From: Acidobacteriota bacterium
GTDB lineage: Bacteria; Acidobacteriota; Terriglobia; Terriglobales; Acidobacteriaceae
Length of the DNA stretch: 64,000 nt
Assembly (NCBI GenBank): GCA_003225215.1
Contig: QIBC01000002.1
Location: 6,589 to 70,588 of the forward strand
Direction: 5' to 3'
This document shows positions 1,250 through 44,930 of this stretch, one piece after another. Position 1 is the stretch's first letter. The number at the start of each line of letters is the position of its first letter. A program made the translations under genes and the position numbers. Below the pieces are notes generated by a model. The model was given only the letters and a program-made list of their open reading frames with translations. It had not been told where the DNA came from and made no database searches.

Positions 1250-2167
1250 ATGAAGGTCCGTTCCATTGTGGTACAAACCATGGCGGCGGCAGTTCTCATG
1301 GCCGTTGCGTTCATGAGTCCCTGCAGCCTCGCCGCTCAGGATCGCTCACAAGTCGATAAACTGGAAGTAAAGCCGGCGCACGAACCACCATTGATGGGCA
1401 TGCACTGGGCGCGAGAGTTTGCCCGGACAGCCCGCGTTCGCCGCAGCCCAAATATGACATGGCACAACGGCGCGATTATGACGTCTTCGGCCATTACCGC
1501 CGTTTACTGGGGCACGTCGTGGACATCGTCCAATCCGAAGGTGGCCGGCTTGCAGTCGTTTTATATTGGGTTCAATGGCTCGAGCTACGCGAAGACTTCG
1601 GATGAATACAGCGGTACGAACGGGCAGGTTGGACCAGACGGCACCTATGGCGGCTATGTGATTGATACTTCTTCCGCGACGGGAGGAAATCAAACGTCGC
1701 CCATCCTTGCGGAAGTTTGCAGGGCGGTCCCTAATCCGGTATCGAATGGATACTATCCGGTCTACACCGACGTAAAGCGAGGCAACGCCGGATACTGTGC
1801 GTGGCACAGCTATGGAAGCTGCAATGGCGTTCCCGTACAGATTGCCTTCTTCTTTGACCTCGACAACGACCTAGGCTGCGACCCGCAGGACACCACCACC
1901 CGGCATCCGCAGGGCCTGGCTGCACTTGCTAATGTCAGCGCCCATGAACTCTCGGAGGCGCGAACCGATCCGCGGAACGGCGGCTGGTACGACTCTTCAG
2001 GAGCGGAAAACGGCGACAAGTGCGCATGGACCTTTAACGTGCCATCCGTGACATTCACGGATGGATCAAATTGGAAAGTTCAAGGTGAGTGGTCAAACGC
2101 AGCCTACAACGCTGGAACCGGGTATCCCAACAGCTCGGGGCAGCGTGGATGCCTCGACGGTCACTGA
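1250..2167 (+). CDS. secreted Cys-rich hypothetical protein
   Basis: N-terminal signal peptide MKVRSIVVQTMAAAVLMAVAFMSPCSLAAQ. It has several Cys pairs and an AHELSEARTDP (HExxE-like) motif. I could not assign a family with confidence. Confidence 0.6.
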   Translation: MKVRSIVVQTMAAAVLMAVAFMSPCSLAAQDRSQVDKLEVKPAHEPPLMGMHWAREFARTARVRRSPNMTWHNGAIMTSSAITAVYWGTSWTSSNPKVAGLQSFYIGFNGSSYAKTSDEYSGTNGQVGPDGTYGGYVIDTSSATGGNQTSPILAEVCRAVPNPVSNGYYPVYTDVKRGNAGYCAWHSYGSCNGVPVQIAFFFDLDNDLGCDPQDTTTRHPQGLAALANVSAHELSEARTDPRNGGWYDSSGAENGDKCAWTFNVPSVTFTDGSNWKVQGEWSNAAYNAGTGYPNSSGQRGCLDGH

Positions 2168-2188
2168 TTCAGGAACAGAAACAATGCA

Positions 2189-2212
2189 GCGCCGGGCACC
2201 CTCGCCCGGCGC
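2189..2212. terminator. GC-rich hairpin between convergent genes (possible bidirectional terminator)
   Basis: gcgccgggc-accctc-gcccggcgc forms a perfect 9-bp stem with a 6-nt loop. It lies 22 nt after the stop at 2167. The U-tract is weak. Confidence 0.45.
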
Positions 2213-2348
2213 TCTGCCTTTGAGCAGCAATCCAACTCCCAAAAAAACTTTTACAAACCTGCCTACCGGTTTTTACTTCACCCAATCACCAGATGACGCG
2301 ATCCCCGATCCCTTAACCGATCCACTATTGCGGACAGCACTGACGCGT

Positions 2349-2906
2349 TCAATTCGTTCGATCACGGTTCTCTGCTGTGTACAACTCATCGCTCTCGGCG
2401 TTGTACAACCGGTTCAGGCGCGCGCGGTAGTTCTCGAATGAAATCTGTGCTGCGAGTTCAATTAATTGTTCTTCTGAGAATTGATTGCGAAGCCTGGCAT
2501 AGAGATCGTCGGAGATGTTTGCCGGAGTACTGGTGAGTGCATCCGCGAGTTCAATTACCATGCGTTCGGTTTCGTTGAAGCCGCTGAGATCTTCGCCAAC
2601 CACCGCTGCCAACTTGGCATCGTTGAGTCCTGCCTTTCTGCCTACGGCAGAGTTGATGTCCACTCAAAACGGACAACCAATACGCGCCGCGGCTCGCACC
2701 TTGCCCAACTGCGTGTAGCGCAGCGAGACGCGCCGCTTTTTTCCTAATCCGGCCTCCATGCCGATGCTGCCCCACACGAGTCCAGGGACACGCATCTGGA
2801 TCTTTGCCGGAGTGAGATCCCGGCCGAACATCTTCCTCATTACGGTATAAAACCAGCGCAAATGCCAAGGCGCCTGATTCTTTTCAAGACCTGCAATTCG
2901 TGGCAT
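2349..2906 (-). CDS. carboxymuconolactone decarboxylase / AhpD-like family protein with in-frame TGA (probable selenocysteine, C-P-F-U)
   Basis: Two same-frame ORFs are separated only by TGA at 2664..2666. The joined product reads ...AAARIGCPF-U-VDINSAVGRKAGL..., so the TGA sits where this family has the second Cys of its CxxC. The likely start is ATG at 2904..2906 (MPRIAGLEKN). Confidence 0.7.
2618..2658 (-). promoter_or_regulatory. candidate bacterial SECIS hairpin downstream of the in-frame UGA
   Basis: The RNA reads CAUC-AAC-UCUGCC-GUAGGCAGAAA-GGCAGG-ACUCAAC-GAUG. It forms a 6-bp upper stem (one G:U) plus a 4-bp lower stem. The apical loop starts about 19 nt after the UGA and contains GG. 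Confidence 0.4.
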
Positions 2907-2985
2907 GAAAACTTTCCATCCGGACACAAAGATCACAACTGAAGAGAATACGGGATTTGTTCATATCGTTGGGCGTTGGTTTCCT

Positions 2986-3792
2986 TCAGGTTTCATCCAG
3001 CGATTGCCAACTCATGCCCCAGGAGTAGAGGCTGACGAAGATCAAGACGTCGAGAAATGGACCGAAGACAAAGTACAGCATGGGCATGAAGAGGATGGAA
3101 TTGTGGATTATCCAGACGTGAAGCATGTACTGGAATGGCAGAAAAATGACTAGGTAAGCCATGATTCCGACCGTCAGTCCGATTTTTTGCGGCAGTCGAA
3201 AGTCGAACAAGAAGTAGCTGAAGCCCAAAATCAGTGGCAACAGGGTGATGAAAATTGTTCCGAAATGGAGCATCCCGACGATGTAGCTGGGCAGATCATG
3301 CGGAAATTTTGCCGCGGCAACGGCAAAATATGCGAGCGCAGTACCCTGGATGATCACTAAAAAACGCAGCAAATAGACGAATGGAAGCTGCTCTTCGGGG
3401 ATTCCAAATGTGGTCCAGAGGATTAGTAGCGTAACTGCGGCCGTTGTCCACCATGTAACGGCGTCGGGCGGCCCAGCGGAAATGAGTACGGTTGGCACCG
3501 AAAACTGTATTGGACCCCAGTGTTGAGGCGCACGCGCGACGGATCCTTCGAGCCCCAACATGCGGTGCCAAAAGCGGAAAACATGAAACCAAAGCTCTCC
3601 AACGTAGCGCAGCGAGAGCAACCACGCGGCGCTAATCGACAAAACTGACCCTAATGTGATCCAAAATTCGCGGGCTGTAAACAGCAAACGCGCAAATGCG
3701 CGGTGCGGTGTGATGATTCCACCACGCCAACCTCGGCGCCGAATGTCGTAAATCTGCGCTTCGGTGAGCGCCGATGGAGTCGGTGCGCTCAT
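2986..3792 (-). CDS. polytopic inner-membrane protein, last gene of the EPS-like operon
   Basis: There are about 6-7 long hydrophobic segments (e.g. ITLLPLILGFSYFLF, MAYLVIFLPFQYMLHVWII). The ATG shares 1 nt with the TAA of the upstream barrel gene (TAATG at 3790-3794). Confidence 0.6.
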   Translation of the reverse strand: MSAPTPSALTEAQIYDIRRRGWRGGIITPHRAFARLLFTAREFWITLGSVLSISAAWLLSLRYVGELWFHVFRFWHRMLGLEGSVARAPQHWGPIQFSVPTVLISAGPPDAVTWWTTAAVTLLILWTTFGIPEEQLPFVYLLRFLVIIQGTALAYFAVAAAKFPHDLPSYIVGMLHFGTIFITLLPLILGFSYFLFDFRLPQKIGLTVGIMAYLVIFLPFQYMLHVWIIHNSILFMPMLYFVFGPFLDVLIFVSLYSWGMSWQSLDET

Positions 3793-4652
3793 TAGAAGTC
3801 TACGAAGAGGCCGACGGTGCCTCCGTTGCGGCGGAAGAACGGAGTGTTTTCGTGGTTAAAGATGATATTAATGCCCCAACCTGGGCCTATCCATTGCCGC
3901 CAAGTCGCCGAATATTGGCGAAAGGCAAAGTCCTGAAGTACGGTTTGTGGGCCCGTAATCAAGTATCCTTCGCGCCCCAATTCGGCACGGACGGTTATGT
4001 AGTGCTCTTTCTCGTGCCCTTGTGTGAGCGCTAAGTACTCTGAGAAATCCGATATGTTGCCCGGATTGGCGCGCACGAAATTAACACCACCCTGCGCCGT
4101 GACCGCCCACTTGGTGTAGTAAGCGAACGCCGGACCGAACCGGAAATCGTGATTTACCTGCTTGGATTTGTCATATCCGAACACTCCGGTGAGTACCAGT
4201 TGCTTATTGCTAAGTAATTTTCGACTTACACTGCTGTCAACGCGCAGCCTTGGCAGGAAAAATCCGCCTACGCTGGTACCGGCGTGGACGTCCGCAAACC
4301 AGTTTTCCGAGATGTCGCGCACAAGTCCGGCGCCGTAATACCAGCCAGTGTCGCCGTAGCGGTTGAGCCGCGACGCTTCGCCGCTGAGCGTATTTCTACC
4401 TCCGGAGGCCACGAGGCGCACGTAAGCATCGCGCCAGGGCACGTATGGGCGCGGATACATGTCGCTGTATCCACCGCCAAATTCAATGTAACCGGGTCCA
4501 TCGAGCGTGGATCGGATGCCTCCCAATCCGGGAACACTTGCACCCTGGGCCACAGGAGTACCTGTGTCCTGCCCGAAGAGTGCGAGAGAAAGAAGTAAGC
4601 ACAGGCTTATGGTCAGGACCTTGATCGTCTTTACAGTCATTCGAAGCCTCAA
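3792..4652 (-). CDS. outer-membrane beta-barrel protein (YaiO-like), putative polysaccharide export porin
   Basis: Signal peptide MTVKTIKVLTISLCLLLSLALFGQ, alternating Y/G/R-rich beta-strand pattern and a C-terminal ...VGLFVDF (terminal Phe). Size and pattern resemble E. coli YaiO as I recall it. Confidence 0.6.
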   Translation of the reverse strand: MRLRMTVKTIKVLTISLCLLLSLALFGQDTGTPVAQGASVPGLGGIRSTLDGPGYIEFGGGYSDMYPRPYVPWRDAYVRLVASGGRNTLSGEASRLNRYGDTGWYYGAGLVRDISENWFADVHAGTSVGGFFLPRLRVDSSVSRKLLSNKQLVLTGVFGYDKSKQVNHDFRFGPAFAYYTKWAVTAQGGVNFVRANPGNISDFSEYLALTQGHEKEHYITVRAELGREGYLITGPQTVLQDFAFRQYSATWRQWIGPGWGINIIFNHENTPFFRRNGGTVGLFVDF

Positions 4653-6564: not shown

Positions 6565-7577
6565 GGCGCTGTGGTCACCTCGGAACAAGCACTGGGATTG
6601 GACTTCACTGCATCTTGCAAATGCGCCTGCACGGCCTGGAACGCAGATTCTTCGAGCACATTCCAATTCGTGCTGTACCGCAGCGGCTCAGAGCGCGAGA
6701 GCCAGCAAGCAGCGCTAGCGTCGTCACCGAACTTCAGCGCCGCCATTGCCACCAGCCCCCACGGATGGGGATCAACTTTCTTGTCCAGCCACTCGCTGGC
6801 GAAACGACTCCGCCACCGATCCCACGCTTGCCGAGTTTGCACATCAGACTCCATAGGGAGATCGGCCAGCCAGGGATACACCTGCGCCACAACATCCGGG
6901 TAGAACGCTGATCTACTCTTCTGGATAGATGGTCGAAACCACTCTGCGTGTTTGTTCCAGAACACCCGCTTGATACTTAAATTCAGCTTCTCTGCTTCTG
7001 CGTAGGTAGATCGAGCCCCGTCAGTCTCGCCAAAGCGCTCCTGCGCGCGCGCAATCGCAATCAGGGCGGAGTAAACCTCGATGTTGTCCATCAGCAGAGC
7101 AACATGGTTGCTGCCGGAGATGTGGTAGACCCCGAGCCGTCTGTTCCTCAGACCAGCCAAGCTAGCGCGAGCTTTGCGAACGCTCTGCTGCCACTCTGGC
7201 GGGAGTCCCGAATCGGGAGCGTTGGTGTAAAGCAGTTGCAGCCAGAGTGCCAGCATGGAATCGTCAGCATCGGCCGCGGCGCAGAGCTTCCAATCGGTGC
7301 CAGGCTTACGGCAATAGCGGCCGAAGCCGCCGTGTTTGTCTTGTCGCGGGAGCAACCATTGGATCCATTGCTGAAGCGGCTGGCGAACATCGAGTCCTGC
7401 TTCCTGGGCGAGGAGCAGCGCCTTGGTAGCAAAGTATGGCTCGATGTAGTCCCCATGATGCTGGAGCGAGATGGCGCCGTCGGGAAGCTGGTAACCGTTG
7501 GGATTAAACTCGCGTGCCGTGGTGGACGCGCAGAGAGCCAGCGAGCTGAGGAACAACAGAAGGATTGTGCCGCGCAT
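6561..7577 (-). CDS. secreted all-helical protein, possible (alpha/alpha)-toroid glycoside hydrolase/lyase of the EPS locus
   Basis: Signal peptide MRGTILLLFLSSLALCASTTA, followed by an Ala/Leu/Trp-rich helical repeat pattern. It sits where BcsZ/PslG-type hydrolases sit in synthase operons. The function is inferred from context only. Confidence 0.45.
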   Translation of the reverse strand: MRGTILLLFLSSLALCASTTAREFNPNGYQLPDGAISLQHHGDYIEPYFATKALLLAQEAGLDVRQPLQQWIQWLLPRQDKHGGFGRYCRKPGTDWKLCAAADADDSMLALWLQLLYTNAPDSGLPPEWQQSVRKARASLAGLRNRRLGVYHISGSNHVALLMDNIEVYSALIAIARAQERFGETDGARSTYAEAEKLNLSIKRVFWNKHAEWFRPSIQKSRSAFYPDVVAQVYPWLADLPMESDVQTRQAWDRWRSRFASEWLDKKVDPHPWGLVAMAALKFGDDASAACWLSRSEPLRYSTNWNVLEESAFQAVQAHLQDAVKSNPSACSEVTTAP

Positions 7578-32250: not shown

Positions 32251-32669
32251 CGTAAGTATTTCGAATGCGGGAAGTCATAGCTCTATCCAACTCAAGGAGG
32301 ATAGTCACTTTCGTAACTATTCGGGCCGCCGGATTGCAGCCGGGCGAGCTAGGCAAAGGAAACAGCAGTTGACGTGCTGATGTTATACAGTCGATCCCAT
32401 TGAAGCCAATATCCCACGCCCGCGTCTCTACCGGGGAGAAAAGACTCTGCTGAATGCGCCTCAGTCGTTTCCGCAGACAGTTTGTAAAGCTCATCGTCTG
32501 AGTTCTGAGGTGATCGCAATCGAACACTTCCGACGTAGTTCGGGCGGCTGATTCTCCCTTGTTGCTGAGCCAGGCCTCGGGAATAAAGGACTTGTATAGA
32601 CATTCGACTGGAGAGAAGATTGCTCGGGCCCTAATAGAAATCCCTTCCTATTTACTGGAGAGATCGAAC

Positions 32670-33563
32670 GTGAAATCCCGTGCCCGAAACCTAACAGTCT
32701 CAGTTGTGTGTTCCTCCATTCTTGCCCTGTGCAGATTCTGTTACAGCGCCGATACCACAGCACATCGTGAGATGCTGGTTTCGACCGCTTGGTTGGCTGA
32801 TCACCTGAACGATGCCAATGTAGCTGTTATTCAAGTCGGGCACGACCATGGCGATTATGAAAAAGAACACATTCCAAACGCTCGCTTCCTGAGCACAAAC
32901 GATTTCACTACTGGGCACACTGGATTGATGGTTGAGTTGCCCGCGTCCGACAAGCTTAGGCAAACCTTCGAGGACTTGGGCATAAACGATGACACTCGGG
33001 TGGTGATCTATACGACCGATTGGTATCCGGTAGCAGCGCGAGCCTTCTTTACCTTCGACTATCTGGGCCACACCAACACGGCCTTACTCGATGGAAGCCT
33101 CGCCCAATGGAAGGCAGAGAATCGGCCGACTGGTACAGACGAACCCAAAATCGCCAAGGGAAGCATCACACCCCGTGTGAACCAGTCGGTGCTCGCATTG
33201 CTGGCGGACGCGAAAGCTGCATCACAACCTGACTCGCAGTTCGTTCTTGTCGACTCACGTCCGAAAAAACGCTATACCGCTGGACATCTTCCCCGAGCTG
33301 ACGACATCTTTTGGGAAGAGACCGTCGCGAGCGCAAAGAAGCCAATCTTTCTGCCTCCCGAGGATCTGCGCAGATTGTTTTCGTCGCGAGGTGTTGCTCC
33401 AGGTCATAAGCTGATCACCTATTGTGAGATCGGTTTGCAGGCTTCGCACATGTACTTCGTGGCGAAGTATCTCGGCTACGAGGTTTCCATGTTCGACGGT
33501 TCGTTCTATCAGTGGAATGACGTTGAGCATCTCGCTTCCGTGAAAGGTAATGCTCCGCGGTGA
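32670..33563 (+). CDS. two-domain rhodanese-like sulfurtransferase (secreted/periplasmic?)
   Basis: MLVSTAWLADHL, two rhodanese modules and the catalytic loop YCEIGLQAS. The start is uncertain, either GTG 32670 with a signal-like N-terminus or TTG 32559. Confidence 0.82.
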   Translation: MKSRARNLTVSVVCSSILALCRFCYSADTTAHREMLVSTAWLADHLNDANVAVIQVGHDHGDYEKEHIPNARFLSTNDFTTGHTGLMVELPASDKLRQTFEDLGINDDTRVVIYTTDWYPVAARAFFTFDYLGHTNTALLDGSLAQWKAENRPTGTDEPKIAKGSITPRVNQSVLALLADAKAASQPDSQFVLVDSRPKKRYTAGHLPRADDIFWEETVASAKKPIFLPPEDLRRLFSSRGVAPGHKLITYCEIGLQASHMYFVAKYLGYEVSMFDGSFYQWNDVEHLASVKGNAPR

Positions 33564-34495
33564 ACCATTGGCAGGAGACCAGACGGACGCTTTCAGTTTG
33601 GGCTCTGGTTCGGTTGCTCATCCTGACAGCTGCTCTCGCACCATCGATTTGGGCATCAGACGCTGGGAATTCCTTCAAGACTGACATGTTAGTGAGCACG
33701 GAGTGGCTGGCTGATCATCTACGAGACTCCAATCTGATCGTCTTATGCATTGTTGATGACGAGCGGTTCTACCTTGCGGGCCATATTCCCGGAGCCCGGA
33801 TGATTCGACTGGCACAGATTGTGACCACACGCGAGGCCATACCAAATGAATTGCCTTCGCCCAGCAATCTTCAGCATGTGTTTGAGGCCGCTGGGCTGAG
33901 CAATAACTCTCACATTATTCTCTATGGAGAACGCTCGGGGATTCTGGCTGCTCGTGCTTATTTCACTCTCGACTATCTTGGGCTCGCGGATCGAGCGGCG
34001 CTGTTGGACGGTGGCGTCGAAAAATGGCGAGCGGAGAGGCGCGAGGACTCAACGGCGGTACCGGCAGTTCGCGTCACCAAGTTGGGGATTCGCCCTCGTC
34101 CCGAGATTCTTGTAAGTCTTGCGCAGATGACTGAGTATTCACGATCAGCCAAAGGGGATGCGGTTCTCATGGATGCCCGTCCGCCATCCGAGTACGCCGG
34201 CGAGAAGCTTTCGGAGGACGTTTCGAAAGCCGGGCATATTCCGAATGCGGTAGGCCTGTATTGGCGCAACTTCCTTCGGGACGATTCCAGTACTGAATTG
34301 AAACCCGCAAACGAGTTGGAAGCCTTGTTCCATGCGTCAGGTGTTACTGCAGGGAAGGAAGTCGTTAGCTACTGTCGGACTGGCATGCAATCCTCTTTCA
34401 GCTACTTCGTTGCCAAATATCTGGGATACAGAACCCGCATGTACGATGGCTCGTTTTATGAGTGGAGTCGATCATCCCCGCCCGTTCAACACTGA
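33560..34495 (+). CDS. two-domain rhodanese-like sulfurtransferase, paralog
   Basis: Signal-like N-terminus, MLVSTEWLADHL and the catalytic loop YCRTGMQSS. It overlaps the previous gene by 4 nt. Confidence 0.85.
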   Translation: MNHWQETRRTLSVWALVRLLILTAALAPSIWASDAGNSFKTDMLVSTEWLADHLRDSNLIVLCIVDDERFYLAGHIPGARMIRLAQIVTTREAIPNELPSPSNLQHVFEAAGLSNNSHIILYGERSGILAARAYFTLDYLGLADRAALLDGGVEKWRAERREDSTAVPAVRVTKLGIRPRPEILVSLAQMTEYSRSAKGDAVLMDARPPSEYAGEKLSEDVSKAGHIPNAVGLYWRNFLRDDSSTELKPANELEALFHASGVTAGKEVVSYCRTGMQSSFSYFVAKYLGYRTRMYDGSFYEWSRSSPPVQH

Positions 34496-34564: not shown

Positions 34565-37371
34565 ATGAGAACGACATTCCCAACCTACATCGCGATCGCA
34601 ATTCTTCTCTTTTCCACCTTAGCCATCGCGCAGACCCCAGATACCGCGATCATTGTTGGACAAGTCTTCGATTTAACGCACTCTGTCGTTATCGGTGTTC
34701 GCATAACAGCTACCAATGATGCCACTGGGCTAAAACGAAGTGCGGAGACTGATAGCAAGGGCAAGTTTTTTCTTGCCGCCCTGCCAGTCGCGGGCAGCTA
34801 CACGCTTACTGCTAGCAAGGCTGGGTTCGCTGACGCGCGAGTCGAGAACCTGAACCTCGCGGGTGGGCGCTCAGCCGAGATGAGTCTGCAACTCAATCCT
34901 TCTGCGGGATCGACCGTTATCGAAGTGACAGGAGTCGTCGGTGAGGTTCTAACCGATGAGCCTCAGCTGGGAGAACGCATCGACAGTAAGCAGGCTCAAG
35001 AGACACCTCTCCTGAATCGTCGCATCACGTACCTGCCTTTGCTGAACTCGGCCAATCGTCCGGCGCTCAATCAGGGCGACGTTTTCATGAACGAGAACTT
35101 GTTTACTACAAATGGTTCCGGCAGGAGGCAAACCTCCTTCGAGGTGGACGGCAGTACCGGCAATGACAGTTGGGGCAGGCAAACAGTCTTTACAAATCTC
35201 CCGTTGTCGAGCGTGCAGGAGATGACTGTTCTCGAAAACGCATTCTCCGCAGAGTATGGCGCAACCACGGGCGGGGTGGTGAATATCGTTACCAAGAGTG
35301 GAAGCAACGCCCTGCATGGCGAAATTCTTGGAGCATTTCGCCCTTCGGATACGCAAGCCAAACTCTCCGGATTCACTGCAGCAAATGCTCCCAATGGCAA
35401 TGCCATCACTGACGATTCATTGAAGCAGACTTCAGCTTCGTTCGGTGGCCCGATCGGCTCAAGCGGACGCACCCACTTTTTTGTTTCGGGCGAATACACA
35501 TGGCAAAATCGCACCTCACCGGTCACATCGCCAGTTTCGCCTGGGCCATTCGAAGGGCATTATCGCGGCTGGTTGGCTTTCGCGCGCCTCGATCACACGA
35601 TCAACAATCGCCACAGCCTGTTCTTCCGCAGCAACGTTGACAATTTCCACGACACCAATCCGAATGGAGCGGTTGGTGGCAACAGTCTGCCCACCGTTGA
35701 CCGCATCTTCAAACGTCGAACCTACTCGGAAGAACTAGGCGAGACCGCGGTATTGAAACCCGCACTTATCAATAGCGCGCGTTTGCAATTTCAGTTGGGA
35801 TCGCCCATTACCGAGTTCGATCCCGCGGTCTTCAGCACGCAGTACACAGTTCCCATTAAGGGCGTGGGAAGCTTTGTGAGTGGGACATCGCAGGCAGCGG
35901 AACTGCAGAATCGTCAATACGAGTTCAGCGATACGCTCTCCGCTTCAATAGGTCGGCACGAACTGCGATTTGGAGCAGATGTGATTCATGCCCATAACGG
36001 TGGTAATGGTAAAGAATTTGGGGGACCCAGTTTTCTAGGAGCCTTCACTTACAAGACCTGAACCTTGGATTACGGTACGAGCAACAGACATTTACTGACG
36101 CTCGAAAGGACTTTGCACCCCGTGTTGGATTCGCCTACAACCTCGGAGGTAAAGGGCGAACGGCAATTCGCGGTGGATTCGGAATTTACTATTCCCAGCT
36201 CATTAACAACGCGCAAGCGAACTACGCACTCTCGGGACCAACCGGCTTCTTTAACTTCACCGCTGGGCCAGGACAGATAGGGTTTCCGAGCAGCGTATCC
36301 GCAGCTCCGTTGCCGACGTTTCCGCCCGGCGCGCGTATGCCGGTTCGTAACTTTTATCTCCGCCCTGGGCGGGCTTCGTTTTACAACCAGTTCTTTCCGG
36401 TATCGGCACTCGTAGGATATCCGGACGCACTCCTTAATCCCTATTCGGAACAATGGACCTTTGGAGTTCAACATCAGCTCGCGCCAAACTGGCTGCTGTC
36501 GATAGACTATCTGGGTTCGCACACGCTAAAGATTGTTCGCCCGCTGGATGTCGATTCGCCTGCATCAGTCGTGCGGGCGATCACGAGCTCGGGCATGCAG
36601 TCCGTGCGCACTGCACAGGCGGCCAACTGCGCGCGTCCGCTGTGGATCGCTTTCTACAATCTCGGTACTCCGTGCAACGCAACGCAGGCCACCAATCCCC
36701 AGCCGGCGTATGCTCAGATCCTCAGTGACGTGAATAACGGCTACGCCTTTTACCACGCTCTAAACGTCAACCTGAATCATCGCTTTACCAATCGTTTCCT
36801 GATGCTGGCCAGCTATACGCGGTCGCATTCGACTGATAACGTCGATCCGGATGTTCCCGGACAGAATCCGAATGATCCGAACATCACGGGTGCGGCGGAG
36901 TATGGCAATGCCATCTTTGATCAACGCCATCGATTTGTGCTCAGCGGATATTATGTGGGGCCGCTGAAAATCACAGTTGGCGGTGTGTCTACCATTGCCT
37001 CGGGATTGCCATATAACCTGACAACCGGCGCCAACAATTTTGGCGATCCGGGAGCGACGGCGGATCGCCCGTTAATCAATGGAGTGATTGTCGGCAGAAA
37101 TACGGGCCGGGGAAGGGCGATCTACGATGTGTCTCCAATGATTGAACGCCCGTTTGCGCTTGGCTCTGAGCGTGTCCAGCTCACAGTGCGCGCGGAAGCA
37201 TTCAACGTCTTTAATCACGCCAATTTCGTCGGGTTCAATGGAGCATTCGGAAACGGAACCACTTTACCGCTGGGACCGGGTGGTCAAAGCGTGATTGGGC
37301 AGCCATTAGTCGGAATCACAAATCAGTTACCGGCGCGTTCGCTGCAATTCCAGGCAAGGCTCAATTTCTAG
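34565..37371 (+). pseudogene. TonB-dependent receptor with N-terminal CarboxypepD_reg domain, interrupted by a frameshift near 36040-36060
   Basis: The first ORF (34565-36061) has a signal peptide, a CarboxypepD_reg domain (IVGQVFD...SKGKFFLAALPVAGSYTL) and a plug. The reading continues one frame back from about 36046 as LNLGLRYEQQTFTDARKDFAPRVGFAYNL... through to the terminal ...LQFQARLNF. Confidence 0.75.
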
Positions 37372-42094: not shown

Positions 42095-43476
42095 TCACTC
42101 CCACTCAATCGTACCTGGCGGTTTCGAAGTAACGTCGTATACGACGCGGTTAATCCCACGAATTTCGTTAACGATCCGGCTCGATATTGTGCGCAATACG
42201 TCGTACGGCAACGGAACCCAATCGGCGGTCATACCATCTTCCGAATGCACAGCTCGTATCGCGCATGTATAGGCGTAAGTGCGGTAATCGCCCATCACCC
42301 CGACCGACATCACCGGCAGCAAGACTGCGAACGATTGCCAGATCTGGTTGTAGAGTCCGGCTGCCTTGATCTCGGACACCACTATCTCATCGGCCTCCTG
42401 GAGCAGCTTCACACGTTCGGGAGTGACTTCGCCAAGGATGCGCACAGCCAGTCCCGGACCGGGAAAAGGCTGGCGCTGCAGAATCTCTTCGGGCATACGG
42501 AGATCGCGGCCGATGCGACGCACTTCGTCTTTGAAAAGATCCTTGAGAGGTTCGATCAGTTTCAGATTCATCCATTGCCGATGATCTTACGTTTCTTCTC
42601 CGGATCGGTGACCCCGGCGAGCTTTGACAGGAATCGATCGCTGGCATCGACGGCCACGAGATTCAATCCCAGCCGGTCGCGAAGGTTGGTTTGCACTTTC
42701 TGGAACTCATCTTTGCGCAAAACGCCGTTGTTGACGAAAACGCAGGTGAGCCGGTCGCCAATGGCGCGGTGAACGAGCACGGCAGCAACGGAGGAGTCCA
42801 CGCCGCCTGAGAGGGCGCAGATTGCGTTGCCATCGCCGACGGTTTTCTCGATAGAGGCCACGGTTTCATCGATAAATCGTTGTGGCGTCCAGTTGGGCTC
42901 AGCATGGCAAATGTCGAAGACGAAATTGCGCAGCAGATCGGTGCCGAGCTTGGTGTGATGAACTTCAGGGTGGAACTGTACCGCCCACGTCTTGCGCTGC
43001 GGATTCTCGATCGCCGCCAGCGCGCTGGAACTCCTGGCCACTACACGAAATCCTGATGGCAGCTCGCGCGCTTCGTCTCCATGAGACATCCAGACAGAGA
43101 GAGATGCCGGCATATTGCGAAAGAGCGACGATTCGCGTTCCAGGACTTCGACCTGCGCATGTCCGTACTCGCGCTTGGGTCCTGGAACTACTTTGCCACC
43201 GAGTTTGTGAGTGATGAAATGCAGTCCATAACAAATGCCCAAAACGGGAAGTCCAAGCGAGAGCACGCGCTCGTCCGCCGGTGGGGCATCGTCGTCGTAC
43301 ACCGAGCATGGCCCCCCGGAAAGAATGATTCCCGCAGGACGGCAGGCTTGAATTTCATTAAGCGGAGCCGTGCAAGGCAGGACCACAGAGAAGACCCGCT
43401 GTTCCCGAATCCGGCGCGCGATAAGCTGCGTGTACTGCGAGCCAAAGTCGAGAATGACGATGGACTGGGGTTCCAT
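42095..43476 (-). pseudogene. guaA: GMP synthase (glutamine-hydrolysing) with internal ~55-codon deletion and frameshift
   Basis: The N-terminal ORF (GATase plus SGGVDSS P-loop) ends ...[12 protein letters not shown]. The next ORF, in another frame, starts [18 protein letters not shown] and runs to ...KPPGTIEWE. The conserved QGT(I/L)YPDVIES...IKSHHNVGGLP block that lies between these points in E. coli GuaA is absent. Confidence 0.85.
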
Positions 43477-43508: not shown

Positions 43509-43674
43509 AACCACGGAGACACGGAGGCACGGAGAAGAGCAAGCGGAAGCGCGATCTCGTTCGACCGACGCAAAGGCAGGCTCGTAATGTTCCTTTCGAG
43601 AAAACGGCTTCGGACATCTCGATATTCACACAGCACTTCGTTGCTTTTCTCCGTGCCTCCGTGTCTCCGTGGTT
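43509..43674. repeat. inverted-repeat element, perfect 28-bp arms
   Basis: aaccacggagacacggaggcacggagaa (43509-43536) is the exact reverse complement of 43647-43674, with a 110-nt spacer. It fills the guaA/permease intergenic region. Confidence 0.9.
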
Positions 43675-44930
43675 AATCGTACCGGAGAGCTTGCACGGGA
43701 TCGAGGCGCGCAGCACGGGCTGCTGGGTAAAGTCCTGCGACCAGGCTCACCACGAGTGAGAAACCTATCGCGCCGAGGACCAGCCAGAGCGGCACTAGCC
43801 ACACGTCGTCTGGCGTGAACTGTTGTTGGCGCTGCATGTAGATGCGCGTGCCGAAATTAATTACGCGCCCGATTGCCCATCCAAGCAGCACGCCGAGTGT
43901 TCCACCGAAGACTCCCATGGCTCCGGCCTCGGCGAAGAAGAGCTTCTGCACGTCGCCATCGCTCGCTCCAATTGCCTTCATGATGCCGATCTCGCGGCGG
44001 CGTTCGAGAATCGACATCACCAGCGTGTTGATGATTCCGAGCGAAGCAACTGCAAGCGCCAGACTGCCGAAGATTCCGAGGAACAAATCGAGTATTGCGA
44101 AAAATTTCCGCAGACTACGGGTCGCGTCGAGGAGGGAGAAAGTGTTGTAGCCAAGCTGCTTGATCTTGTCTTCCACCGGTTCCACTTGGGCAGACCGGCC
44201 CACTCGCACGATCAGCGCCTGGTAGCTGTTTGACACTGGCGCCGAACTCTGAAGCCCCAGAGGCTGCAGCGTCAGTGTCCTTGAGCAAATGGCGAGAGGC
44301 GTAACGAACAACAATATCCTTGCCGATCAGATCTTCGGGCCTGTCGCTCAGGCTTTTGGCTTCGTCGGCTTGCAGAATGACTTCGGCTGCGTCCGGGGCT
44401 GAAAAGTATTTGCCCTTCATGTTGTCGAAGGTCTCGAGTTGCCGCGCAGACATGGGCAGCCCACTGATCAACTGGTACTCGCGCGTTCTGCCGCGTTCTG
44501 CAGAGTCAGCGGGTTCTCCCGACGCAGCTTTCGTTGCGCCTGATTCTTGCGTGGGGGGATCTTGTACGGCGCCGGCAGAGTCCACCTTTAGTTCCGCGGG
44601 AAAGCGAATGTCCGGATAGACCTCCGAGACCTCCGATAGATTCGCCATCTTCTGGCGCGCGGGCTCATCCAGCGGAGGAGGTGGTCCTTTCCTTCGTTCC
44701 ATGCGGCCATTCGGTCCCTGCATGCGTCTGCCGGACGTCACATAGATGCTGTCGAACAGTCCCGACTTTGCCAAACGCGATGCGGCGAGACGTTGCAGTC
44801 CGATGCCGAGCGAAAGCATCGCGACCAGCGAAGCCACTCCGACGGAGATGCCTACAGTGGTGAGCGAATTACGCAGCACCGACTCGCGGAGATTTCGCGT
44901 AGCGAGTTCGACCAGGTCTCCGGTCTTCAT
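43673..44930 (-). pseudogene. MacB/LolE-like FtsX-family ABC permease, frameshifted near 44270-44300
   Basis: The N-terminal ORF has TM1 (LTTVGISVGVASLVAML) plus a periplasmic domain. The C-terminal ORF, in another frame, carries the FtsX domain (ILERRREIGIMKAIGASDGDV...LDPVQALRYD). The two ORFs overlap at 44115-44314. Confidence 0.75.

Follow-up and report, generated by a model that had tools for sequence, protein, structure and literature searches.

In AhpD of Mycobacterium tuberculosis, the second cysteine of a CxxC motif is the attacking residue, and a nearby histidine helps to activate it. Related proteins in which the motif reads CxxU, where U is selenocysteine (Sec), have been catalogued since 2005. 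The families listed are "AhpD-like 1" (COG2128/YciW), "AhpD-like 2" (pfam02627), and "CMD-like protein" (PF02627) (Zhang and Gladyshev, Sargasso Sea 2005 and Global Ocean Sampling (GOS) 2008), and AhpD-related CxxU proteins also appear in reviews from 2022 and 2026 and in a 2026 database paper. AhpD-like 2 was found to be commoner in non-marine samples (GOS 2008). The subject here is a gene on the minus strand of a 64,000-nucleotide stretch of DNA from an Acidobacteriota bacterium (positions 6,589 to 70,588 of contig QIBC01000002.1, assembly GCA_003225215.1), called the window below. An earlier note, made from the sequence alone, had proposed that an in-frame TGA in this gene encodes Sec in a protein of the CMD/AhpD family, and its premise that AhpD-like selenoproteins are established in prokaryotes agrees with the catalogues cited above. 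Sequence comparisons indicate that positions 2906-2349 very probably form one gene for a 185-amino-acid CMD/AhpD-fold thiol/selenol oxidoreductase with the predicted motif Cys78-Pro-Phe-Sec81.

Two open reading frames (ORFs) on the minus strand, 2936..2664 and 2663..2349, lie in one frame, and their sole interruption is the TGA at 2666-2664. Homologues have the N-terminus MARISGLEKKQAPWHLRWF... (full-length ones begin MARISGLEK...), so the start was assigned to the ATG at 2906-2904. The read-through product, ...AAARIGCPF-[UGA]-VDINSAVGRKAGL..., was counted at 185 amino acids, and 2349-2906 is the exact gene. The arrangement described in the earlier note (two same-frame ORFs parted only by TGA, a protein of about 185 amino acids, and the sequence RIGCPF-[TGA]-VDINSA) therefore agrees with the sequence and its translation, which reads RIGCPF-[TGA]-VDINSAVGRKAGL. 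The features of the gene are as follows.

2349..2906, minus strand: complete coding sequence of the CMD/AhpD-fold protein; 185 codons, ATG at 2906-2904, terminator TGA at 2351-2349.
2664..2666, minus strand: UGA codon 81, probably Sec judging from its conservation and the Cys in this column; second position of C78-P-F-U81.
2664..2675, minus strand: predicted CxxU active-site motif TGT-CCG-TTT-TGA, with Cys78 at 2675-2673; from the sequence and its alignment to structures with GCAFC or GCAYC.
2652..2654, minus strand: codon AAC for Asn85, four residues past the second redox residue, where the structures have His (CxxCxxxH).
2637..2651, minus strand: candidate hairpin of the selenocysteine insertion sequence (SECIS) type, UCUGCC-GUA-GGCAGA; from synonymous constraint, covariation, and published criteria for bacterial SECIS (bSECIS) elements.

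For family placement, the stop was replaced by Cys. The resulting protein scores 28.9 bits with PF02627 (CMD), above the Pfam gathering threshold of 23. The top NCBIfam match is NF053654 ("GroundWater_YciW, YciW-related (seleno)protein"), which aligns residues 1-176 with model positions 1-177 of 179 (E = 4.7e-29) and gives 101.4 bits, below the equivalog cut-off of 310. Scores for TIGR01926 (peroxidase-related enzyme; 29.3 bits, cut-off 81.8) and NF041047 (GSU3128 family (seleno)protein, "distant AhpD homolog"; 16.2 bits, cut-off 110) are also below their cut-offs, and the protein is therefore not a member of any of these three families. A profile search of the PDB with the family identified Atu0492 (2gmy), Pseudomonas aeruginosa PA0269/AhpD (2ijc, 2o4d, and 7xw1), and Bmp8 (6ohi), and the alignments to solved structures run across the TGA. 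The AlphaFold2 (AF2) model of P0002, a natural Cys homologue with 78% identity, has a core (residues ~70-175) with predicted local distance difference test (pLDDT) values of 85-97 and a poorly modeled N-terminal third. Foldseek searches with this model placed 2gmy, 2ijc, and 7xw1 at the top (target-normalized template modeling (TM) scores of 0.75-0.85, root-mean-square deviation 2.3-2.5 Å), the best matches being 2gmy and 7xw1 (target-normalized TM 0.78-0.85). The AF2 model of P0002 has the all-helical AhpD fold. The Pfam score, the structure profile matches, and the Foldseek results all favor the CMD/AhpD assignment made from the sequence alone. The CxxCxxxH signature of AhpD-type members is found only in part, with the redox pair kept and the His absent. 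Its position is occupied by Asn85, which is nearly invariant in the clade and is replaced by Gly in P0031; C78 and P79 are invariant or nearly so.

Conservation of the UGA was examined in a genome scan comprising one genome per species. Relatives were detected in 472 genomes, and the codon was read in the best 80 loci, which derive from metagenome-assembled genomes (MAGs) labeled Terriglobales, Pyrinomonadaceae, Candidatus Udaeobacter, Chthoniobacterales, other Acidobacteriota or Verrucomicrobiota, and one Nitrospirota. TGA stands at exactly codon 81 in 80/80 of these best loci. More divergent relatives, with C-terminal halves 45-70% identical to that of P0031, were found via protein matches and look-up of the encoding contigs; all seven have TGA, following GCP[FW] or GCVW, and one belongs to a Dehalococcoidia MAG. 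Overall, TGA is retained in 87/87 DNA sequences from at least four phyla. The titles of the MAGs and samples of these relatives point to soil. A metagenome scan with P0031 as query returned no matches.

In a search of 5.8 billion proteins, the gene was represented by hundreds of exact half-protein matches, which are either pieces of ~104 amino acids starting from [VM]DINSAVGRK or N-terminal pieces ending ...RIGCPF. Independent assemblies contain the identical C-terminal ORF on 23 contigs. TGA was present in each of the four read, which come from separate assemblies of the same organism, and three of the four match the window exactly over 528 nt. Most "full-length" database matches show W at the Sec position. 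The DNA of one of these, P0003 (L094 301-843, from JGI), has TGA, and the false Trp versions presumably arose when gene callers applied a code with TGA as Trp to short contigs. These data bear on whether the TGA is a sequencing or assembly error for a true TGC or TGT, as the earlier note had asked. The source assembly is of metagenome type and several window genes look frameshifted, which would fit such an error, but the recurrence of the ORF on contigs of independent assemblies, with TGA in 4/4 read and in 80 other species, makes this explanation next to impossible. The occurrence of TGA in independent assemblies, in 80 species, and in distant relatives thus excludes both a sequencing error and a lineage-specific nonsense mutation.

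Coding constraint was compared on either side of the UGA in 81 species. Differences at codon positions 1, 2, and 3 are 0.17, 0.10, and 0.50 in the 80 codons before the UGA and 0.21, 0.10, and 0.52 in the 95 codons after it, and both halves are under equal coding-type purifying selection. A pseudogene, in which a nonsense mutation inactivated a CMD-family gene, would explain why a gene that is otherwise intact has an in-frame stop, and would have company in the other disrupted-looking genes of the window and in the extra stops of two relatives. It is nevertheless extremely improbable, because the TGA occupies the same codon in all 87 sequences and four phyla, the downstream half is under purifying selection equal to that on the upstream half, and the "mutation" would have fallen exactly on the catalytic Cys column. 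The two relatives, L021 and L070 (2/81), have one extra in-frame stop each, at codon -57 and codon +83 from the Sec codon, respectively; one stop is a TGA at an Arg column and the other a TAG at a Trp column, and these two copies are possibly pseudogenes or sequencing errors. The true terminators of the 81 genes are TGA in 33 (including the window gene), TAG in 28, and TAA in 20. Since TGA terminates 33/81 of these genes, it is not reassigned genome-wide.

Cysteine was identified at the UGA column in natural variants (GCPFCVDVNS in P0002, GCPFCVGVNS in P0007, and GCPYCMDIGS in P0031) and in CMD proteins of Nocardia (NCEFCLDIGS). The structures' GCAFCVDMH (Atu0492) and GCAYCVNMH (PA0269) align with GCPF-U-VDIN. 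Because the variants, homologues, and structures all carry Cys there, the UGA corresponds to the second Cys of the CxxC redox motif. This is where the earlier note had placed the stop, and it had called for an alignment with Cys homologues; P0002, P0007, P0031, the Nocardia proteins, and 2gmy/2ijc now provide it, and the TGA column is indeed the second Cys. In the DNA of P0031 (L081 62-607) the codon is TGC, while other members of its clade are TGA halves, and the protein looks like a recent Sec-to-Cys change; its hairpin sequence, TCT GCC GTG GGC AGA, is unchanged. In another sequence, P0019 (L082 10001-10462), GRPSC replaces GCPF-U via three nearby base changes and the N-terminal part lies in another frame, so that this copy is either in decay or the product of an error-prone assembly.

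The same alignments address the possibility that the locus encodes two small proteins, with translation stopping at the TGA at 2666-2664 (80 amino acids) and restarting at the GTG at 2663-2661 (104 amino acids). Gene callers split the locus in this way in every assembly, and in the window the GTG adjoins the TGA. Several observations make two proteins scarcely credible. The codon past the TGA is ATA, ATC, or ATT in 22/80 aligned segments, and these are not usual starts. The break falls inside the CxxC turn of one compact domain, structure alignments span it, and the Cys-type relatives are single chains. Two proteins would also leave unexplained the RNA-level constraint on a hairpin located at SECIS distance.

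Published criteria for bSECIS elements are a loop of 3-9 nt, a stem of 4-16 bp, a location 16-37 nt from the UGA, and an energy of ~-7.5 kcal/mol or lower; the loop should be closed by a pair and have, within its first two positions, a G that precedes G or U (PMC13188914). The hairpin at 2651-2637 begins 12-13 nt past the UGA and comprises 6 bp and a loop of G2645, U2644, and A2643. The spacing from UGA to loop is 18 nt, the first loop base being 19 nt after the UGA. Its energy is -7.4 kcal/mol alone and -8.4 kcal/mol with flanks, and its properties agree with all of the criteria quoted. Most relatives have a seventh, outer pair at the equivalents of 2652/2636, where the window has C and A, unpaired.

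Comparison of the 81 species revealed strong constraint on synonymous sites at this position. The codons for N-S-A-V-G-R-K read AAT TCT GCC GTG GGC AGA AAA in nearly all of them, with TCT in 81/81, GGC in 80/80, AGA in 79/81, GCC in 74/80, and AAT in 79/81; elsewhere in the gene, Arg is encoded by CGN and Ser mostly by TCG. The paired codons of the hairpin have the five lowest synonymous entropies of the gene (mean normalized entropy 0.18, vs 0.79 ± 0.16 elsewhere). The third base of the loop codon, Val+7, is free (G 56, C 14, T 8, A 3). Together, the constrained bases make up the hairpin (U)UCUGCC-GUN-GGCAGA(A), and the unconstrained one is third in the loop. Divergent relatives have a hairpin at the same offset with an altered sequence and even altered amino acids (T-A-G-S-S, A-A-G-S-S), as in CACUGC-CGGGA-GCAGUG, ACGCUGC-CGGGA-GCAGCGU, CUCUGCC-GUG-GGCAGAG, and GUCUGCC-GUC-GGCAGAC. 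Pair counts made on 69 distinct sequences gave 97.5% of cells paired, against ≤60% with the partners slid. Compensatory changes occur at two pairs (UA/CG/GC and UA/AU/GC/UG), and the covariation score was reached by 0/500 shuffles. A model of the hairpin, R1, whose alignment includes this site, matched the window here at 53.9 bits and identified no second site in it.

The earlier note had also drawn a stem-loop starting ~19 nt past the UGA, at 2618-2658, with an 11-nt loop. Its location and 5' arm stand, but the 11-nt loop and the 2618-2658 geometry do not, as the 3' arm is not conserved. The stem in question, CUGCC at 2650-2646 with GGCAG at 2634-2630 (11-nt loop, -8.1 kcal/mol), can form in the window. 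As a functional element, with outer pairing of 2658-2655 to 2621-2618, it was rejected: the 3' arm varies (Lys is AAA in 69/81), and the third position of the Ala codon after the Lys is free. A lower stem that pairs the UGA itself (UGAGU with ACUCA, in the minimum free energy structure of the window) was likewise rejected, since it is not conserved in homologues.

If the UGA encodes Sec, a SelB protein carrying Sec-tRNA(Sec) would bind the hairpin, with its G-U-N loop closed by a C-G pair, during translation, and the bound SelB would supply selenocysteine at the UGA instead of release factor 2. In the product, Sec81 would attack as the nucleophile and Cys78 would resolve; cycling via a selenenylsulfide, the pair would reduce a peroxide or an oxidized partner protein, like the CxxC of Cys-type AhpD-like proteins. 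The change from His to Asn85 might be tolerated because a selenol is already ionized at neutral pH, making a general base unnecessary, although this is speculation.

Several results weigh against a selenoprotein with its own SECIS. No tRNA of any kind was found in the 64-kb window, a Pfam survey of ~40 window ORFs detected no SelA, SelB, or SelD, and no tRNA-Sec was found in 60 related loci that were scanned. An E. coli SelD probe likewise had no tblastn match in ~1.15 Mb of related loci. The missing local machinery is an absence of support and no contradiction, because linkage to selenoprotein genes is not expected; Sec users are reported among the Acidobacteria as a phylum. The hairpin itself is short, with no variation in its four core pairs, so the covariation comes from the two outer ones and from a few divergent sequences. 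No Rfam model matched the window at gathering thresholds, nor did any match the surroundings of the site at E ≤ 10. The single-sequence fold is no better than shuffles (z = 0.25), and an equally good hairpin follows 3.5% of the 1922 TGA trinucleotides of the window. With the window-only signal this weak, the case for the hairpin comes from the cross-species comparison. P0031, the only Cys variant whose DNA was read, retains the hairpin, a state that fits a recent Sec-to-Cys change but is no evidence for a hairpin needed solely for Sec. Finally, the assembly is not flawless, with several window genes apparently frameshifted.

The lack of Sec machinery in the window and scanned loci would also suit recoding of the UGA to a residue other than Sec, and the residue inserted at the UGA is not fixed by sequence alone. 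Such recoding could involve a SelB-like factor with a tRNA(Cys) that mimics tRNA(Sec), or an acidobacterial allo-tRNA acting as an opal suppressor. Both have precedents: besides an additional selB, some Deltaproteobacteria have selC*, a tRNA(Cys) with a UCA anticodon, and 8/4 and 9/3 allo-tRNAs able to suppress in E. coli are found in Acidobacteria (Mukai et al., Nucleic Acids Research 2017, PMC5389517). The selC* and allo-tRNA systems are narrowly distributed (PMC5389517), whereas the UGA and hairpin occur together in at least four phyla, and CxxU AhpD-like proteins are a catalogued Sec family. A general suppressor would have no need of a position-specific hairpin and would clash with the TGA terminators in 33/81 genes. 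For insertion of Cys, a TGA would be pointless compared with TGC, yet it is kept in 87/87 sequences. Non-Sec decoding is thus very unlikely; if true, the gene would mark a position-specific recoding system across Acidobacteriota and Verrucomicrobiota. Insertion of Sec, as outlined above, is the strongly preferred interpretation.

The selenoprotein gene lies after an exopolysaccharide-type cluster in the window (UDP-GlcNAc 2-epimerase, GT2 glycosyltransferase, and YaiO barrel) with no obvious link to it, and no gene neighborhood is shared across the 80 loci. A screen of the window and of all loci for ORFs that are joined by a TGA and conserved across loci yielded this gene alone, apart from antisense or off-frame artefacts of it. 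One further feature adjoins the gene.

2188..2213, minus strand: terminator-like GC-rich hairpin of 11 bp (9 G-C); from a pattern scan only.

This hairpin is located between the convergent genes 1250-2167 (plus strand) and 2906-2349 (minus strand) and may be a shared terminator. Elsewhere in the window, positions 32559-34495 (plus strand) contain two adjacent, uninterrupted tandem-rhodanese genes (334 and 311 amino acids); some rhodanese families are selenoproteins. Three other window genes appear to be disrupted by frameshifts. A CarboxypepD_reg/OMP_b-brl_4 outer-membrane protein is split between different frames (34565-36061 and 36310-37371, plus strand), a GMP-synthase-like gene (42095-43476, minus strand; GATase followed by the beginning of NAD_synthase) ends at 42568 while another ORF occupies 42095-42571, and a MacB_PCD/FtsX permease consists of two overlapping ORFs (44115-44930 and 43673-44314, minus strand). 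These could be assembly indel errors or real pseudogenes. The upstream YaiO β-barrel gene (equivalent to window 3792-4652) differs between two assemblies of the same organism (L083 8058-8872 and L084 8024-8872), being called as one 282-amino-acid protein in one and as pieces of 126 and 130 amino acids in the other, a difference that points to assembly-specific indels or strain variation.

The main value of these results lies in mending a systematic mis-annotation, with relatives in 472 species-level genomes. In essentially all public records seen, the gene appears as a pair of fragments named "hypothetical" or "alkylhydroperoxidase family", or else carries a false Trp, and the lineages affected include abundant soil groups (Candidatus Udaeobacter, Terriglobales, and Pyrinomonadaceae). 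Since this clade falls below the cut-off of every curated NCBIfam selenoprotein model, a dedicated model, together with hairpin model R1, would recover many missed selenoproteins, and it would also flag these lineages as selenium users. Of minor interest are the invariant His-to-Asn change near the Sec and the unusually sharp RNA-structure constraint on synonymous sites. CxxU AhpD-like/CMD-like selenoproteins and bacterial SECIS elements are already well established, and the locus adds little new principle.

The present clade is an uncurated subfamily of the known AhpD-like/CMD-like CxxU selenoproteins. It shares with them the PF02627 superfamily, the predicted Sec as second residue of the CxxC motif, and pairs of Sec and Cys homologues. 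This comparison was made with the published descriptions of those families (representatives MBW1767730.1 and MCB9421940.1) and extends to the superfamily rather than to one named subfamily. The resemblance to NF053654 extends to an end-to-end alignment and to its curation as a (seleno)protein, but the present proteins form a sister clade that scores below its cut-off. They are also below the cut-off of TIGR01926, which a 2026 review ties to the "AhpD-like protein" selenoprotein.

The hairpin resembles the bSECIS model and the element of E. coli fdhF in being a stem-loop just past the UGA, within the coding sequence, with a small loop opened by G and then U. The fdhF loop starts at a nearly equal distance from its UGA. 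Unlike those elements, the hairpin here is very short (6-7 bp with a 3-nt loop) and has no bulged U, and its binding by SelB is inferred. At the protein level, the all-helical fold and the GCxxC turn are common to the Cys-type Atu0492 (2gmy) and PA0269/AhpD (2ijc, 2o4d, and 7xw1), with the debrominase Bmp8 (6ohi) and M. tuberculosis AhpD (1knc) as more distant Cys-type structures. In contrast to these structures, the present clade has a predicted Sec for the second Cys, Asn for the His of CxxCxxxH, and ~45 extra N-terminal residues that are poorly modeled. By analogy, a dithiol-type redox cycle is probably common to the present clade and the Cys-type AhpD-like proteins.

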